Positions 1,799-57,068 of a DNA stretch of 64,000 nucleotides are shown here, piece after piece (within the stretch, counting starts at the first letter, position 1; each line of letters begins with the position of its first letter). The notes below the pieces were generated by a model. That model did no database searches, was not told the DNA's origin, and worked only from the letters and a program-made list of their open reading frames with translations. The stretch spans positions 67,992 through 131,991 of IMG/VR virus record IMGVR_UViG_3300032038_000015; one strand, written 5' to 3'. This stretch comes from a virus (lineage: Duplodnaviria; Caudoviricetes). Made by a program: the position numbers and the translations under genes.

Positions 1799-4700
1799 AT
1801 ATTCAAAACAATAACAGATGAATTAGGAAATACAAAATTATCAATCAATAACAGATTTAAAGGATTATTTAGCGGAGATTTTTTTAAGAAAAAAAGTATA
1901 TTAAGCGATGACGATATTTCTGCGATACAAGCGTATAATGCAGAAATAAACAGGGGGGTTACATCTCAAACTGCATTTTATAGAACAATGCAAAATGCTT
2001 CTGTAGAAGCACAAAATATGGCGGCATCTGCCAATGGAATGGTTGTTAATTTAGAACAAATTCCAAAAGTTTCTAAAGCGGGACAAGTAGCACTTAGAGG
2101 TCTTGCTATGGCTGGCAATATAGTTGCTGAAATTCTAGTAGGATTTGTAATATCTAAAGCTGTTGAAGGATTGGATAACTATATTCATCGAGTAGAAAAT
2201 GCCAAAAATGCTCTTGATGAATTTAATTCTTCGGTAAAAGAACAACAGAAAGATATTTCGTCACAGGAGTCATGGATTTCTGAAAATGGAAAACAATTTG
2301 AGGAATTATCAAAAGGTGTAGACAAATATGGTCATAATATATCATTGACATCTGACGAGTTTTCGGAATATAAAAATCTAACAAGTCAAATTGCTGAAAT
2401 GTTCCCTACTATGATTACTGGATATAATGAACAAGGCAGGGCAATATTAAAAAATAAAGGTAGTATTGAAGAACTTACAAAAGCATATCAAGAAAATCAA
2501 GATGCTTATTATGCTAATATCCGTTCTAAATCTACTAAAACTTTTGAGGATTATAAGACAGAAACTAAAGGTGATGTTAAGAAGAAAAATACTATTGAAG
2601 AGTTAATGAGTGGGAATTTATCTTCCAGGTCAATTAGGAACATACTTGGCAAAGAGGAAGGACAACTCATAGACATTGATAACAACAAAGGTATATCTTC
2701 TGCTGAAATACAAAATGCTTTAGGTAAAGACTTATACAATAAACTTTATGAAGAATTGAAGAAAATGCCAATAGGTAAATTTGATGCTTCATTTGAAGAT
2801 TTATCACCAGAACTCCAACAAAAAATCAAAGATATATATTCAAAATTAAATGATACAATAGATACAGAATCGGAAAAAGTGCGTCCTATTCTACAAGCAT
2901 ATTTACAAGGTGATACATCTGGATATGATGAATTAGACGCTGAAGCCCAAACTGCTGTCCAATCATTCATTCAAAACGTAGATAATTCTTTCTTCGAGAA
3001 TTTTAAAACTGATAACGACATGGAAACATGGATACGCCAGAATGTCGTTGAGCCTTTAAAAAATGGTGTAAATAGTGATGAATTAGCTGTAAAAATTCAA
3101 ACACTATTCTCTCTCGATCAAAAGGATTATAAAAGTTATCAGGATTATGTAAATGCTGTATTAGCTATTATAAATTCTTTGAGTAAGATGAAGGATAAAA
3201 ATGGCAATGTAATCTATAACGATAAACAAATAAATACGATGAAAACACAATTTGGCGTTGGCGATGTAGATTCGGATGGTAATGTATCTGGAAATAAATA
3301 TATAAGTTCCGTACAGGATAAGTTTAAAAATGTAAAAGGTGCAAAAGATTATATTACAGGATTAAATAAAGAAGAATTAGACACAGTTATGCACTATAAG
3401 CTTGAACCAGATAAAGATACATCTGTAAAAGATTTAAAAGATTTCATTAAAAACGAATTACAGCCAGAGGCAAATAAAAAAGAGGAGAAAGTAAAATTCT
3501 CTGTAGCATTTAATGATGGTGACTTTAAAGATGTAAAAGAAAAGCTTCTTGAACTTGCTAAGGCAGGACAACTAACACCGTATACAATATCTTCTACAAA
3601 AGAATATAATGCTTTATTAGAAGATACTGGATTATCTGCTGAAAAGGCATATAAAAAGATAATGAAAATTGCACAATCAGATATGAGTGAAGCTGATTGG
3701 AAAACTACACTTACAAATGCACGTTCTCAAATTGCTGAAATTAAAAATCTAAAAAAGGAATTAAAAAAGAACGGTGAGAGTTCTGATTTTATGGATACTA
3801 TTCTTGAAAAATTCCCACAGTTAATTGGTTATCTTGGTGATCAAAAGGGAATGCAAGAACAGTTAAATGAATTACAAAAGGAACAAGAAGATGTTGCCAA
3901 CAATGCATATATGCATATGGTTGAAAATAGTGAATCTTATTATTCGACATTAAAACGGAAAGAAGCAGAAAGATTAAAAACAACAAGCAATACAATAAAC
4001 AAAATAGTTAATGGTAACGCTGGTCTTGTGAAAGCTTTAGGTGGTTACTATAAAGTCGATTTAAGCAACTACGCTTCAATTGCTAAGGCGAAAGCTACAT
4101 TAGAAAAGAATTTAATAACAAATCTTGCTAGTGCGTGGAGCAAATTTTACAAAGTACAGGTAAATGCACAAACTGGATTAGCAGAAGTCCATAACGATAG
4201 CAAAACTGTCCCAAGTGAATATTTAGAAAAAGCCAACGGGGATTATGGTAAAGCTGTCAGTATGATGGTAAAGGAACAAAATAAACAAAAGAACTCTGCT
4301 TTGAAAGCAGCGAAAGCATACAATGAAGCGATAAAGGGTTTTAACTCAATTATAAAGAATCCAGGTGTATCTACAAATGTTAGCAGTAGTGGAGGAAATA
4401 ATAAATCTAAGAAAGCAAAAGCTACCTATCAAAAATTCTCTCAAACAATCGACTGGTGCGCTCAAACATTAAAGAAACTGTCTGCACAGATAGACAATGT
4501 ACAAGCAAAATTAAATAACACTTCTGCCCTATCGAAGCAGATTTCTTATTATAAAAAACTTGTAAAATCTCAAAACGAACTTGCTCAAAGTTATGAAAAA
4601 ACAGAAAATAAATACAACAAAGTGTATAAAAATGCTTTGAAAAAGTTGTCAAAATCAGACCAGAAAAAAGTTAGAGATGGTTCTTATACAATTGAACATT

Positions 4701-52069: not shown

Positions 52070-52747
52070 TTAATCACCTCCTCTTTTCAATAATTCAAGG
52101 ATATGTTGCTTTTCTGTGAAGTTACTACAATATTTCTCAATGCCTTGTGCCATAATATCTTTTAATTCATCTTCCTCATATGTAGAGCCAAATTGCGACC
52201 AACTACAACTATGTTCTATATCATTGTGTACTAACGCAAGTTTAAATACACTGCCACCATAATTCTTATATGCATTTAATTTGATAGCTTTAATGTGAGG
52301 AATTTCTAAACGCCAATTATGCTCTTTATATTCAAACTGAATATTAGTAGCTTGACCAAAATTAAAATCAATGAATTTAACATCATTCATGTACTCAATA
52401 TCAAGAAGTTTTTTAATATAATCAACATACCAATCATATGCTTCCTTTTCTTTATATTTCTTTCTTTTATCAAGCTTATTACCATCAGCATCCTGATTAT
52501 TTGATAACATATTTAACCATTCTCTACACGTTTTAATAGTAGATGGCTGATCAAGTAGCATATACTGAATGTTCTCTTTGTAAGTGCGAAATGTCTGTTG
52601 TTCAATAAGGTCATATTCATTCTTCATGTCATCTAATGCTTGTTTCTTTGCAGACAATCTTCTTTCTGCTTGTGCAAACTTATTTAATGAATCCATTTCA
52701 TATTCGCCATTATAGTTGTATGTGCCATTTTTATATACTAAAGACAT
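52070..52747 (-). CDS. Hypothetical protein
   Basis: ORF with RBS GAGGTG. Confidence 0.7.
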   Translation of the reverse strand: MSLVYKNGTYNYNGEYEMDSLNKFAQAERRLSAKKQALDDMKNEYDLIEQQTFRTYKENIQYMLLDQPSTIKTCREWLNMLSNNQDADGNKLDKRKKYKEKEAYDWYVDYIKKLLDIEYMNDVKFIDFNFGQATNIQFEYKEHNWRLEIPHIKAIKLNAYKNYGGSVFKLALVHNDIEHSCSWSQFGSTYEEDELKDIMAQGIEKYCSNFTEKQHILELLKRGGD

Positions 52748-52812
52748 TAATCATTCACCTCACTTTAATATTCTCTCTTTGTGACCAAATGAATCCTGAA
52801 TTTACTGTTGCT

Positions 52813-53001
52813 CTACTTAACAAACTTTAAACATAGATTAATTAAATTTATAACAAGTGCCATACAACAAAGAACCAATGCATAACATGAACTCCATAAA
52901 GGCTCTTTCTTAATACATTTTTTATAAATTGGAAATCCAATCAACCATAATAGCCACGCCACAGCTACAATCACAAATAAAATAATCATAAATGTCTTCA
53001 T
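52813..53001 (-). CDS. Small membrane protein
   Basis: Two hydrophobic segments and RBS GAGGAG. Confidence 0.6.
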   Translation of the reverse strand: MKTFMIILFVIVAVAWLLWLIGFPIYKKCIKKEPLWSSCYALVLCCMALVINLINLCLKFVK

Positions 53002-53013
53002 AAACAATCTCCT

Positions 53014-53181
53014 CTATTTACAATTCCCAAGTCCAACTTTATAGTCATCCTTTACATCAATAGTTACTTCTCTCTGAAATTTTCCTTCTTTATCATACAA
53101 AGACAAGTAATATCTGTTTCCACGCTGCTCTAATACAACATCTTCATTTTCGAATAACTGAACTCGTTTCTGTTTCTGTAC
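53014..53181 (-). pseudogene. Headless gene fragment abutting the downstream guide scaffold
   Basis: Open frame VQKQKRVQLFENEDVVLEQRGNRYYLSLYDK...CK* with no start codon or RBS. Confidence 0.55.
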
Positions 53182-53263
53182 TTTTTGTATTATTTAAAAT
53201 TCTGATGAGTGATTATATCCTCACCATTCAGATGCAAAATCACCTGCAATCTTTCGATTGATT
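53182..53263 (-). ncRNA. Fused omegaRNA-like guide scaffold downstream of cas12f-like gene (scaffold C)
   Basis: CAATC-GAAA-GATTG, CAGGTG-ATTTTG-CATCTG, AAT, GTGAG-GAT-ATA-ATC-ACTCAT, then terminal CAAAA complementary to the ATTTTG loop. Homologous to both upstream tracrRNA-like elements. Confidence 0.75.
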
Positions 53264-53272
53264 AAGTAGCTC

Positions 53273-54661
53273 TTAGTCGACTTTATTATTCTCTGAACCA
53301 TTCTTGTTCTGTTCATACTTTTCAGAGATATCATAATATTTTCTTGCTTCCTGTTTACTCTTTTCAGTAACTTGTCCACTTTCCATCCAAAGAGTTGACT
53401 TTGCAATATTTCTAGCAGCATTAAAATCAGCATTAAAACCAGTTTTCTCATATTTCTTATGACTATCACAATTCTCATTCGCACATTCAAATACTGACTG
53501 TGATTTTCTCTGACCAAATTCCCAATTACCACATACACTGCAAATCTGTGATGTATAACAAGGATTGATTTTTCTTACTTCTATTCCGTATTTAGCTGCT
53601 TTATATGTAATATAATCTTGAAGCTTATAATAACTCCAATTTCTCAGGATAAAATCGCTTGTATCATATCCTGTTAAATTCTCAATATTTATGTATTTAG
53701 CATTATGCTTTAAAGCAAAATCAACAACTCTCTTACTTATCATGTGACAATATGTTTCAACAAAATGTGCTTCTGCTTTCTGTAATCTTTCCAATGCTTT
53801 CAATTTCTTTGCTCTACCATGACCGCCAGAAGTATTTCTCAATGACTTCTGTAATCTTCTTCTCTGAGCTTGCATTTTAGTTCTTATTCTTAGAAAGTCA
53901 TCTGCATTTCCAATTGCCAATCTCTCGTAAAGATTATTATTTAAAGCACACATCGCAGGAACAGCAATACCTAAATCAACACCTACTACTGTATTTTCGT
54001 CTAACTCTCTAAGTTGTTTTGGAATAGATATTGAAAGATTCAAAATGATTGATTTACCATCAATTTCAATACTGCTTCCTTGCACTTTATAATTCTCTTC
54101 TAATATATTTTGTACAACAGATCTTAACTCTAATGACCTATGCGGATTACCAAATACAACCTTGAATACAATTTTATTAACCCACTTGACATATACAGCT
54201 AAATCAGAATCGTTAATTTTATCTAAGAAATCCTGATAAGTTTCATATTCGTGATAAAAAGTTAAGTTTCTACCTCTTGTAATAAGTGGATTGGTTCTCT
54301 TATAATTAGTTACTGTTCGTTCACCTTTAGCCAATCCATTCTTTAAAGCTGTGCTGAAATCCTGCTTGACTTTTTGCGTAACAGCTGATGGTGTATCTAC
54401 GCCTGTTGCAAAATCAATATCTTTTAATATAATATTAGAATTTGTCATTATTTCTTTCTGTCTTGCCTTAAATTCTTCATTCTTAATATCACGATTATAT
54501 TTGTAATATTCACTCATAAGCTGTCCCATAAGTAAATTACACGCTTGATACTGAGCATACTGACCATTTCTAATAAAGTCATATACTCTATTGATTTCCT
54601 CCTTATCTCCTACTGGAAATAATTTAATTTTTCTACAAATTGTCATTCTATCGTTTCCCAT
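53273..54661 (-). CDS. cas12f: Cas12f-like (type V-F / TnpB-derived) compact RNA-guided nuclease, 462 aa
   Basis: RuvC I VGVDLG, bridge helix, GGHGR.KKL motif, RuvC II NIENL, NWSYY.LQ..I.YKA, TSQ.CS.CG zinc finger, RuvC III NADFNAARNIA. Adjacent mini-arrays. Confidence 0.8.
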   Translation of the reverse strand: MGNDRMTICRKIKLFPVGDKEEINRVYDFIRNGQYAQYQACNLLMGQLMSEYYKYNRDIKNEEFKARQKEIMTNSNIILKDIDFATGVDTPSAVTQKVKQDFSTALKNGLAKGERTVTNYKRTNPLITRGRNLTFYHEYETYQDFLDKINDSDLAVYVKWVNKIVFKVVFGNPHRSLELRSVVQNILEENYKVQGSSIEIDGKSIILNLSISIPKQLRELDENTVVGVDLGIAVPAMCALNNNLYERLAIGNADDFLRIRTKMQAQRRRLQKSLRNTSGGHGRAKKLKALERLQKAEAHFVETYCHMISKRVVDFALKHNAKYINIENLTGYDTSDFILRNWSYYKLQDYITYKAAKYGIEVRKINPCYTSQICSVCGNWEFGQRKSQSVFECANENCDSHKKYEKTGFNADFNAARNIAKSTLWMESGQVTEKSKQEARKYYDISEKYEQNKNGSENNKVD

Positions 54662-54674
54662 AATTTGTAAATCT

Positions 54675-54834
54675 CCTTTATATTTTCATAATTTTAAATA
54701 TGTCTAAAACTAAAAACAAAGAATATCAGACATTTAAAGTTTTATATCTATGTAATTTTATATACATCTAAAACAATTGAATCAAATTTATCTTTATCAC
54801 TTAAGTTTTATACCTATGTATATGCATCTAAAAC
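54675..54834 (-). CRISPR. Mini-array A: 3 repeats (GTTTTAGATGTATATAAAATTACATAGATATAAAAC type), 2 spacers
   Basis: Repeats at 54805-54834 (6-nt deletion), 54739-54774 and degenerate 54675-54710. Spacers 54775-54804 (30 nt) and 54711-54738 (28 nt). Confidence 0.8.
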
Positions 54835-54916
54835 CTCAAACTTATTACATAGATTTTCAATGAGTCGCATTGCGCTCACGATTCGGCAGTAAAATCTACC
54901 GCAATAGAATTGATTT
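54835..54916 (-). ncRNA. tracrRNA-like scaffold A
   Basis: CGGTAG-ATTTTA-CTGCCG, AAT, GTGAG-CGC-AAT-GCG-ACTCAT, anti-repeat ATCTATGTAAT complementary to repeat A. Confidence 0.78.
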
Positions 54917-54934
54917 TAATTTCATTTATATATT

Positions 54935-55102
54935 CTCTTAATAAGATGTAATTTTATGTGCTCTCAAAACTGTTGCTCATAACAATAGATTCAAGTGACG
55001 CATTTTGTTAATATGTAATTTCATATACTTCCAAAACAAGATGGTTCATTTCAATGAGTTCCTGAAATTTTGTTAATATGTAATTTCATATACTTCCAAA
55101 AC
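54935..55102 (-). CRISPR. Mini-array B: 3 repeats (GTTTTGGAAGTATATGAAATTACATATTAACAAAAT), 2 spacers
   Basis: Identical 36-mers at 55067-55102 and 55002-55037, degenerate copy 54935-54970. Spacers 55038-55066 (29 nt) and 54971-55001 (31 nt). Confidence 0.85.
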
Positions 55103-55195
55103 CCCAAATTACATACAAATTACATACTTTTCAGTGAGTGGAATTACCCTCACTATTCGGACTCAAAATAGCCCGTAGTCAAAAGACTAATGATT
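55103..55195 (-). ncRNA. tracrRNA-like scaffold B
   Basis: TAGTC-TTTT-GACTA, CGGGCT-ATTTTG-AGTCCG, AAT, GTGAG-GG-TAATT-CC-ACTCAC, anti-repeat TATGTAATTT (tandemly duplicated) complementary to repeat B. Confidence 0.78.
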
Positions 55196-55415
55196 ATAGG
55201 ATAAACTGGCTTGAATTAGCCAAATAGATTTGTTACAATAGAACAAATATAGTTTATCCTATATTTTATTCTCTGTAGAACAGATTGTTAGGTCGCCAAA
55301 CTTGTGCAATCTGTTCTACTGTTTTTTGTTTCAATATCTAAATAATATTCATTCGTTAATGGATTTACATATATTCGATTATCAGGTGAGTCATAATCAC
55401 AACGGTTACACATCT

Positions 55416-55982
55416 TTATTCTCCACTCTTAATGATTTCTTCTAATGTTCTTGGCGTGTAATTCATATAATTCTTCATACATCCGACATTCCACATATTA
55501 CATGGCTTATCATATAAAGCTGTCATCTGATATTTTACTTGCTGTATTATATTATCTTCAAAACCTGTATGTACATGACCGTAGAGATGGTAGCTTCTGT
55601 AGTAGTGATTCTTAAAGCAAGGAATTGGATAATGGCACAGAACTACAATTTTACCATCACCAATATCGAGTTCCTTGTAATCGGTAATTTCACAGAATCT
55701 ACTCTGTAATTCCCTATTTTTTAATAACTTGCCATCATGATTGCCCTTAATTAGATGTATATTCCCATTCAAATTGTTAAAAATTTCAATAGTTTTTGTT
55801 GTGTTGTACCACGAAATATCTCCAAGCAAATATACGTCATCATCAATTCCGACTGTATTGTTCCAATTTTTAATAATCGTTTCGTCATTCTCTTCAATTG
55901 ATTTAAAAGGTCTGTTGTCAAATGCCATGCAGTTTTTATGTCCAAAATGTAAATCTGATATAAAATAATTCATACTTTTCAC
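55416..55982 (-). CDS. Calcineurin-like metallophosphoesterase
   Basis: SDLHFGH, LGD, GNHD, CHYP, GHVH. Confidence 0.9.
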   Translation of the reverse strand: MKSMNYFISDLHFGHKNCMAFDNRPFKSIEENDETIIKNWNNTVGIDDDVYLLGDISWYNTTKTIEIFNNLNGNIHLIKGNHDGKLLKNRELQSRFCEITDYKELDIGDGKIVVLCHYPIPCFKNHYYRSYHLYGHVHTGFEDNIIQQVKYQMTALYDKPCNMWNVGCMKNYMNYTPRTLEEIIKSGE

Positions 55983-57068
55983 CTACTCATTATTCTTCAA
56001 TAAGAATTCAGGACTAACCGCTTTAAATGACTGCTTTCCATCTTCGCTTCTGAATACAATTCCTTCTCTGAGAGTATCGTATAACTGACTCTTACCTGTT
56101 GCATATTCAAGAACTTCTGGTACGGTCATTCCTTTAATAGGTGCATCTTCAGATAAAATAGGAACGAACTTTAACCCTAAATCATTTACAATTTTCTTTG
56201 CTTCTACAGATCCGACTCGTCCACTTGGATAAATCAGATTGAAAATATATAAATCTGGTTCTGTAACATGATATTTATTACTCTGAACATTGGATGCAAC
56301 ACATTCTCCTTGAATTGCTACCCACTCATTATCTCCAATCAGCTTATGAAGAACCTCTTCAATGTTGTATTTCTCAGCAACACTCCAAAATGAAGATGTA
56401 TCTTTTTTCCACTTTCTGAGATTTCTTGAACATACTGCAAAATCATATGTATCCTTGTTCCAAAAATGTTTACCTTTTACTCGCTGTAATGTAAATGAAC
56501 CACTCTGCCCATCAACCTTTTCAGTTGCAATCCACTTACAGTCCATATTCAGATAGAAAGGTGCATTCTGAATTCTTGTTTCGTCAGTCTTACTAATAAA
56601 ACTTGGAAAGCCTTTGGCTTGTTTCTTTGGTAATACAAGCTTTCTAAACCAAGCCATTCTCATTAAAAATTCAGGATATTTCTTCGCAGGTGTCTTAGTA
56701 TTTTCTGTATCTACCTCTTCCTTATCCATTGTTGGCTCATATTGTGTAATACCAAGAATCTCTGTTACATCATCTCCAATGTTATATTCTCCTTCTGGAA
56801 GAATTGATAATGGGAATACAATTCCCTGGCTGATCACACCTGCCATCTTCATTGTCTTAATGCGGAATTTCTTACTTCTTAAAAATTCAAACTCAGGCTT
56901 TTCAGGGAATACAGAATCAATCTCTGCAAATACAACCTTATCTCCTACCTTAAAATGCTTCTGAACAATTACTGTCCAACCTAATACTGTTGCTAATACG
57001 ATTCTATCCTTACCCTCAATCGGGATAATAGAATTAATTTCTTCAATATGCGCTAATGCTCTTGCCAT
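55983..57068 (-). CDS. RNA ligase (Rnl2/DRB0094-like, N-terminal OB fold)
   Basis: EIDS, SQG, KTDETRIQN, TEKVDG, QGE, EGIVFR, SFKAVS. Confidence 0.88.
   Translation of the reverse strand: MARALAHIEEINSIIPIEGKDRIVLATVLGWTVIVQKHFKVGDKVVFAEIDSVFPEKPEFEFLRSKKFRIKTMKMAGVISQGIVFPLSILPEGEYNIGDDVTEILGITQYEPTMDKEEVDTENTKTPAKKYPEFLMRMAWFRKLVLPKKQAKGFPSFISKTDETRIQNAPFYLNMDCKWIATEKVDGQSGSFTLQRVKGKHFWNKDTYDFAVCSRNLRKWKKDTSSFWSVAEKYNIEEVLHKLIGDNEWVAIQGECVASNVQSNKYHVTEPDLYIFNLIYPSGRVGSVEAKKIVNDLGLKFVPILSEDAPIKGMTVPEVLEYATGKSQLYDTLREGIVFRSEDGKQSFKAVSPEFLLKNNE

Follow-up and report, generated by a model that had tools for sequence, protein, structure and literature searches.

Several RNA-guided systems resemble the locus analysed here. 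Among the type V-F1 nucleases, RhCas12f1 recognizes the PAM NCCD, cuts 21-25 bp downstream and prefers 20-nt guides; it is inactivated by mutating D210 or D388, and the sgRNA of OsCas12f1 is impaired by stem truncation (PMC10090079). In nuclease-dead Cas12f proteins, which act in RNA-guided transcription, the dual tracr:crRNA is proposed to have "collapsed again" into one chimeric guide RNA (Hoffmann et al., PMC12259090). In the TnpB-omegaRNA systems of IS200/IS605 elements the guide RNA ends at the right boundary of the element and the flank is the guide. For the TranC transposon-CRISPR intermediates (Jin et al., Cell 2025, as cited in 10.64898/2026.03.27.714800 and PMC13565253), a single effector reportedly works with CRISPR RNAs as well as with an RNA from the right end.

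We analysed a 64,000-nucleotide stretch of DNA (the window), which is part of a 132-kb IMG/VR virus record of a gut phage. It encodes a nuclease that shares with type V-F1 Cas12f1 (RhCas12f1, 8hr5 chain) effector homology along the whole protein, including the Asp pair of RuvC, a tracrRNA that contains an anti-repeat, 36-nt repeats and ~30-nt spacers, and a C-rich 5′ PAM, which is YCA here and NCCD for RhCas12f1. Effector and RNAs belong with the type V-F1 Cas12f1 of the C-rich-PAM group. The system differs in being phage-borne and without cas1/cas2 in its cassette, in having three tracr-plus-array modules with each tracr fused directly to the first repeat, and in that one of these modules is collapsed to a single guide with a genome-encoded, fixed guide sequence. 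With the natural sgRNAs of dCas12f it has in common a collapsed chimeric RNA with the guide at its 3′ end. The nuclease differs from dCas12f in that the catalytic residues are kept and a sigma-factor partner is lacking, and the predicted guide points at a gene of related phages, whereas theirs points at a host promoter. In addition, the collapse sits beside two intact dual-RNA modules, and uncollapsed orthologous modules exist next to nucleases that are 96-98% identical. Like a TnpB omegaRNA, the RNA ends at the right boundary with the flank as guide, and target and motif occur together only in the allele without element and deletion (25 phages with a YCA-flanked target); unlike it, the single guide arose secondarily out of a CRISPR module, and the cassette lacks TnpA and a TAM at its left flank and is not precisely inserted. 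As for TranC, the same dual use would be possible with this architecture, in which one gene is accompanied by two dual modules and a single-guide module, but the best solved relatives of the effector are Cas12f1 proteins.

Results

A Cas12f1-type nuclease in a cassette shared between phages

The nuclease ORF matches Pfam Cas12f1-like_TNB (4.7e-16) and OrfB_IS605 as well as NCBIfam guided_TnpB (168 bits), and the PDB chains 8hr5_A (8e-87) and 9nzp_A (3.3e-82) align with nearly the full-length protein. The 8hr5 chain (497 aa) is presumably CnCas12f1. The Asp pair of the nuclease aligns with D210 and D388 of the 415-aa chain (9nzp, RhCas12f1), and the conserved middle motif holds a Glu, which gives the RuvC triad. 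Because the catalytic Asp residues align with those of RhCas12f1, the nuclease looks catalytically competent. Genes in the vicinity encode a phosphoesterase, an RNA ligase and small proteins of no named function; no sigma-factor (rpoE) partner is found among the neighbours.

The locus has no relatives in the GenBank phage collection. Altogether, 28 related loci were found, 22 of them close (nuclease 96-98% identical) and six distant (50-61%); they are numbered L below, and genomes G. The conserved cassette extends from a hairpin (55319-55275) to the end of the third scaffold (53182) and occurs in four contexts. It contains the nuclease ORF and RNA modules only, and cas1, cas2 and cas4 are absent from it (55320-53182). 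A search for a Y1 transposase (TnpA, PF01797) gave no match across the 132-kb record. The DNA of the cassette is ~90% identical between phage groups whose other genes barely align, which means that it moves between lineages. The features of the locus are listed in Table 1.

Table 1. Features of the cassette and its surroundings (window coordinates unless a locus is named)
Feature	Position	Strand	Basis or remark
Gene X, 5′ 29 codons, cut off by cassette	55327-55413	-	PHROG 1494, 1.6e-7
Hairpin with 13-bp stem, left end of conserved cassette	55275-55319	-	similarity among 23 loci in four contexts begins there
8-nt motif before tracr A	55267-55274	-	
Tracr A core	55127-55190	-	covariance-model match; mini-array A follows
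Mini-array A	repeats 55067-55102, 55002-55037; degenerate repeat 54935-54970	-	after tracr A
8-nt motif before tracr B	54931-54938	-	
Tracr B core	54853-54913	-	covariance-model match; mini-array B follows
Mini-array B	full repeat 54739-54774; degenerate repeat 54675-54710	-	after tracr B
Cas12f1-type (TnpB-derived) RNA-guided nuclease, 462 aa	53273-54661	-	Pfam, NCBIfam and PDB-chain matches
8-nt motif (A-G-A-G-A-A-T-A) 5′ of scaffold C, inside 3′ end of nuclease gene	53287-53294	-	
Scaffold C, collapsed single-guide form of tracr plus first-repeat module	53182-53272	-	fold, alignment, covariance-model match
Scaffold C hairpin 1	53260-53247	-	
Scaffold C stem 2, 6 bp with 6-nt U-rich loop	53246-53229	-	
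Scaffold C stem 3, bulged	53226-53203	-	two-base spacer separates stem 2 from stem 3
Pseudoknot strand, kept 3′ end of CRISPR repeat	53182-53188	-	pairs with stem-2 loop 53240-53235
Predicted hard-wired guide (flanking DNA)	53161-53181	-	perfect 19-21-nt match in 36 IMG/VR phage loci
Beheaded small gene	53014-53181	-	open frame without start codon, starts on the base after scaffold C
Protospacers in G011 (IMGVR_UViG_3300045988_176920)	L049 7399-8494; L050 8043-8072		
Protospacers in G012 (..._174074)	L052/L053		

In the window and in L007-type loci the cassette interrupts gene X. The intact gene encodes a 58-aa Cys-rich protein (L033, 1351-1527) and is present in G002, G005 and at least 10 other phages. 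In the L007-type loci, gene X supplies the right flank with its final eight codons. Relative to this type, the window has its left junction 45 nt deeper in gene X and its right junction ~650 bp further along, exactly where the conserved part of a small gene begins. The junctions of both types abut the cassette ends exactly, and one deletion cannot interconvert the two forms. The ~650 bp between gene X and this small gene, the targeted gene of the sections below, are missing from the window. In empty alleles the two flanks are separated by ~650 bp, so the cassette did not simply insert into the targeted gene. None of the left flanks in the four contexts ends in YCA, the PAM derived below; the L016-type flanks have no DNA counterpart in window-type genomes, and thus no empty site can be read there. 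As a separate observation, the left breakpoint of the cassette in L007-type loci maps inside a TCCA site of intact gene X (L007 ~3320-3340 compared with L033 1395-1410).

Three scaffolds with one covarying fold

Tracr A and tracr B lie upstream of the nuclease and each continue directly into a mini-array. An earlier reading of the sequence alone (the sequence-only reading) had placed a third scaffold of the same architecture, with compensatory changes, directly after the nuclease gene. Fold, alignment and a covariance model agree with this. Scaffolds A, B and C fold alike and can be aligned, and their common fold starts with a small 5′ hairpin, continues with a 6-bp stem closed by a 6-nt U-rich loop and ends, after two unpaired bases, in a stem from which one A bulges. 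The core covariance model (22 pairs) was built from eight scaffold copies and has exactly three matches in the 64-kb window, namely A, B and C, and 85 more in the 28 related loci.

Across 41 distinct sequences 92.9% of the cells pair, and double changes are found at 17 of the 22 pairs. The covariation score is 0.596 compared with 0.213 in shuffles (none of 500 reached 0.596) and at most 0.10 with slid partners, in an alignment that was fitted to the model and favours the structure somewhat. Four covarying combinations of stem-2 loop and repeat 3′ end occur (UUUUG/CAAAA, UUUUA/UAAAA, UUUCG/CGAAA and UUUCA/UGAAA), which supports a pseudoknot. Rfam (E up to 1) gave no matches in 52500-56000.

The same 8-nt motif precedes all three scaffolds (Table 1). 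It occurs 43 times in the window, where 6.2 copies are expected, and 42 of the copies are on the minus (coding) strand; its distance to start codons varies. The motif could serve as a phage promoter or as a signal at junctions. A scan for sigma-70 promoters and terminators yielded hits at chance level only.

Array spacers and the derived PAM

Spacer content differs between loci that are 97% identical, a sign of active arrays. Six independent spacers match two 42-kb phages. The 5′ flanks of the protospacers are CCCA, TCCA (three times) and TTCA, and the last spacer has TCCA in the second phage. From these six flanks a PAM of 5′-YCA, mostly TCCA, is derived, which fits the NCCD of RhCas12f1. The spacers of the window's own arrays have no match in five related genomes, and no protospacers of these arrays are found in the GenBank phage collection.

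At least five spacers, found in different phages with the cassette, match the two 42-kb phages (G011 and G012, Table 1), and three of the protospacers cluster in 1.1 kb around the point where a 1992-aa ORF begins. The small phages appear to be the chief opponents against which the CRISPR cassettes of the big phages are directed. One 30-nt spacer is present in array B of L004 and L005 and in array C of L023; this widespread spacer has no protospacer in IMG/VR, where the arrays themselves are the sole matches. In L012 (3856-3885) and L013 (3811-3840) the spacers come from one target, where their positions overlap and their strands are opposite. Shared and overlapping spacers suggest that spacers move between arrays or are re-acquired from one hot spot.

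Collapse of the third module

Scaffold C begins immediately after the end of the nuclease ORF at 53273 (minus strand); its covariance-model match (53198-53261) scores 83.6 bits. After stem 3 only ~21 nt are left (53202-53182), with the A-rich strand last. The sequence-only reading held that the repeat:anti-repeat duplex is collapsed and the pseudoknot strand kept, and this is what the comparison with full modules revealed: ~55 nt, comprising the anti-repeat and most of the repeat, are missing from the short form, the last bases of the repeat remain, and the duplex is down to a few bases, while the three covarying hairpins and the pseudoknot strand (53188-53182) are retained.

In the full modules the anti-repeat pairs with the repeat; this is the case for modules A and B in the window and for module C in 17 relatives. 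A repeat follows 81 of the 88 scaffold modules, six are collapsed in one way, and module C of L014 is deleted differently. Among the 28 related loci the collapsed form is restricted to L007, L008, L011, L012 and L013, which share it with the window. In 17 of the 22 close loci the nuclease stop codon is followed by a full tracr with anti-repeat and a one- or two-repeat array, and in all six relatives at 50-61% identity the nuclease is flanked by full modules before and behind. The stem-3 sequence of the short form recurs in L002, where the repeat is full. Because the collapsed form is confined to one sub-lineage and the more distant relatives carry full tracr and array, it is derived by secondary collapse. 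We are confident that scaffold C is a derived natural single-guide scaffold.

This is where the sequence-only reading failed, which had taken scaffold C for an ancestral single guide: every more distant relative has a full tracr and array. A TnpB-type omegaRNA at the right end of a transposon, aimed at the empty site of an element that moves in the manner of IS200/IS605, would account for an RNA directly 3′ of the nuclease gene with the flank as its guide, for the guided_TnpB match and for the hairpin at the left end of the cassette. However, all outgroup loci carry a full tracr and array at this position, and the collapsed stem 3 is common to the full module of L002. The missing Y1 transposase, the four left contexts without YCA and the ~650 bp between the flanks in empty alleles also speak against such an element, and we consider this ancestry very improbable. 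The IS200/IS605 model was rejected for the cassette, as there is no TnpA in the 132-kb record, no PAM at the left flanks and no simple insertion. Thus, of the likeness to a TnpB omegaRNA that had been claimed, the position 3′ of the nuclease and the flank as guide stand; the RNA itself derives from a CRISPR module, and IS200/IS605 features were not found.

The window and the L007-type loci differ at 110 of the 1389 positions of the nuclease gene but at only one of the structured 79 nt of scaffold C, where a G-C pair has become G-U; the second variant of scaffold C (L008, L013) is likewise a G-U pair. This suggests purifying selection on scaffold C after the collapse (Poisson P about 0.01), in a comparison that mosaic recombination among cassettes possibly blurs. 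Since the duplex is almost gone and stem truncation impaired the OsCas12f1 sgRNA, the collapsed RNA may nevertheless be weak or dead.

Arrays and scaffolds at the cassette locus are frequently rearranged. In L014 (5401-5470; see also L018, 4555-4690) a deletion in module C begins halfway through stem 3 and ends halfway through the repeat, and this module is probably dead or crippled by it.

The predicted flanking guide and its matches in related phages

Scaffold C had been reported to run straight into a headless gene, with flanking DNA in the position of a guide. Both observations are correct: the 21 nt directly after the scaffold end (53181-53161) are the first bases of a frame without start codon (53181-53014). 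This frame is the 3′ part of a gene that is 112 aa long in L007-type relatives, or of a short form starting one codon upstream. The closest relatives have an ATG directly before the equivalent of base 53181, and other relatives have 58 extra codons there. Compared with the short-form allele the beheaded gene therefore lacks only the ribosome-binding site and the ATG, and compared with the long form it lacks the 58 codons. Because an ATG or 58 more codons precede the same base in relatives, the headless gene is real. Pfam and PHROG give no family for it.

Bases 2-19 of the predicted guide were used as query for a scan of IMG/VR, which gave 36 loci. The 5′ flank of the target is CCA in 22 of them, TCA in three, ATG in eight and another triplet in two (CTA and GTA); one locus is cut at the edge. 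In the CCA and TCA loci the first base of the guide is present as well, between this triplet and the query match. Relatives with an intact allele thus exist, as the sequence-only reading had expected, and their 5′ flanks can be read: YCA, the PAM derived independently from CRISPR protospacers, directly precedes the perfect target inside the intact gene in 25 of the 36 phages. The CTA and GTA flanks are single-base variants of the PAM in two alleles. The window's own copy of the guide sequence is preceded by the A-run of the scaffold instead of a PAM, and it is therefore not a target.

The nuclease is found in none of the 36 target loci and in none of the 25 target-bearing genomes searched (E 1e-10; 16 of them at least 90% complete), and the same search recovered it in four known carriers. 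The target phages are syntenic but mosaic relatives of the window, with a right flank that is 86-90% identical over ~180 nt and a gene X head that is ~89% identical over 87 nt; the homology of the flanks in PAM-bearing alleles appears thin for homing. The closest backbone relatives of the window have ATG and no PAM before the target, and alleles that could be cleaved are those of more distant relatives. The claim that the guide is aimed at the uninterrupted allele thus holds in one part, as PAM-flanked intact alleles are present, and has to be amended in another, as the cassette sits in gene X and not in the targeted gene, with ~650 bp missing.

The window guide is found in one record only. 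In the five loci of the L007 type, CCT (TCT in one) precedes the match of the collapsed guide in every intact allele inspected. Since this guide has no YCA in intact alleles, a flank guide need not be functional.

Among the 36 loci (L076-L111), the DNA that separates gene X from the conserved part of the targeted gene is hypervariable. A 155-aa gene is present or absent and the target gene is long or short, and all variants join at the exact nucleotide at which the window guide starts (match to window 53180-53163).

PAM-adjacent junctions of other cassettes

Other cassettes of the family, in which the flank comes after the last repeat of module C, were compared with genomes that retain the DNA next to the junction. 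L015, L017 and L022 lack 1163 bp that are present in G002, and their flank is preceded there by TTCA. L023 lacks 444 bp, and ACCA precedes its flank in a relative that keeps this DNA. The flank of L002 is a gene tail, which in L107 is preceded by ACCA. Together with the window, four of five distinct right junctions are YCA-adjacent, the L007 type being the exception; for the L003-type flank, the commonest context, no cassette-free allele was found. With YCA making up 2.7-4.0% of trinucleotides, the chance of four in five is P about 4e-6 to 3e-5, a value that rests on five contexts with common cassette ancestry and on a PAM taken from six spacers.

This value bears on the possibility that the window junction arose by chance, through a microhomology or slippage deletion that ended at a recurrent mosaic boundary, with the PAM elsewhere being a coincidence. 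Short-form, long-form and other variants do join at the same nucleotide, and the short form itself resembles a deletion between two similar ribosome-binding-site-like motifs. The BLAST alignment with L088 reaches 13 nt into the end of the scaffold, and the DNA upstream of the short-form gene shows an AT-rich similarity to this end, which would allow a mundane slippage deletion. Against this, chance would have to place four of five independent right junctions next to a PAM (P about 1e-5), and the scaffold is complete to its last base at the junction. We therefore regard a chance junction as improbable. Simple microhomology between the scaffold end and the first bases of the target was rejected as the origin of the junction; the product that it predicts differs from the one seen.

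PAM-adjacent junctions are also expected if the flank is an inert scar of self-targeting. In that case a spacer recombined with its own or a relative's protospacer downstream of array C, the DNA between them was lost, autoimmunity was relieved and the leftovers are idle. The L015-type and L023 junctions fit this well, as they are plain deletions in cis (1163 and 444 bp) from the last repeat to a PAM-adjacent site. Arrays rearrange often, as seen in the other internal deletion of L014 and in a 6-nt spacer remnant in L002, and the L007-type flank guide, without PAM in intact alleles, would be such a leftover as well. An idle remnant, however, does not explain why conservation of the collapsed scaffold far exceeds that of the adjacent coding gene, why both variants keep their pairing and why the pseudoknot strand is kept exactly. 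Furthermore, no array spacer with the guide sequence was found in IMG/VR. Recombination of this kind would account for the formation of the junction and still leave a present function possible; that the flank is nothing but a scar seems to us rather unlikely.

Discussion

A probable natural single guide next to two dual-RNA modules

We hold with moderate confidence that scaffold C encodes a natural single-guide RNA for a nuclease-competent, V-F1-like Cas12f that is carried by the phage, and that this RNA is aimed at the intact allele of relatives. On genomic comparison, the chances are about even that the guide actually functions against the intact allele, while actual RNA-guided homing is doubtful.

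For this single-guide gene we propose the following course of events. An internal deletion of ~55 nt in a tracr plus mini-array module would have removed the anti-repeat and most of the first repeat. Scaffold C might then be transcribed together with the nuclease mRNA or from a signal of its own, and the transcript would fold, bind the nuclease and carry the adjacent ~20 nt as guide. Because the RNA reads straight into the adjacent DNA, this guide is fixed. It would correspond to the first ~20 bases of the beheaded small gene, and the phage's own genome would be spared. The ribonucleoprotein would cut the uninterrupted allele of co-infecting relatives and at least handicap them. Repair of the break from the cassette-bearing genome could copy in the cassette and the adjacent deletion, which would amount to homing.

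The exact junction most likely goes back to a former spacer that recombined with its protospacer, or to selection of junctions that give a working guide. Recombination between spacer and protospacer would also end self-targeting and would explain the two cis deletions of the other context. A broader proposal is that phage Cas12f cassettes repeatedly hard-wire an array-end or collapsed-scaffold guide to the undeleted allele by spacer-protospacer recombination and so act by homing or as a deletion drive; we put this forward as a tentative and, at present, unlikely generalization.

Implications

The path from a single omegaRNA to split tracrRNA and crRNA and on to a single guide has so far been inferred from distant lineages. 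Here the reverse step, the collapse, can be seen among cassettes with 96-98% identical nucleases and beside two uncollapsed modules. What is new is that the collapse has taken place in an apparently active phage nuclease with two intact dual-RNA modules at its side, and that uncollapsed orthologues of it exist. Likewise new is that the fixed guide and three other array-end flanks point at PAM-flanked sites in related genomes. Scaffold C also offers a natural minimal sgRNA design for Cas12f with a C-rich PAM.

The fixed guide, together with the three other flanks, suggests that phage CRISPR cassettes can act as homing elements or deletion drives in the competition between phages. If the reading as a drive is true, a CRISPR system would have returned to the selfish way of life of its TnpB-omegaRNA ancestor, the spacer taking the part of the right-hand homology arm.
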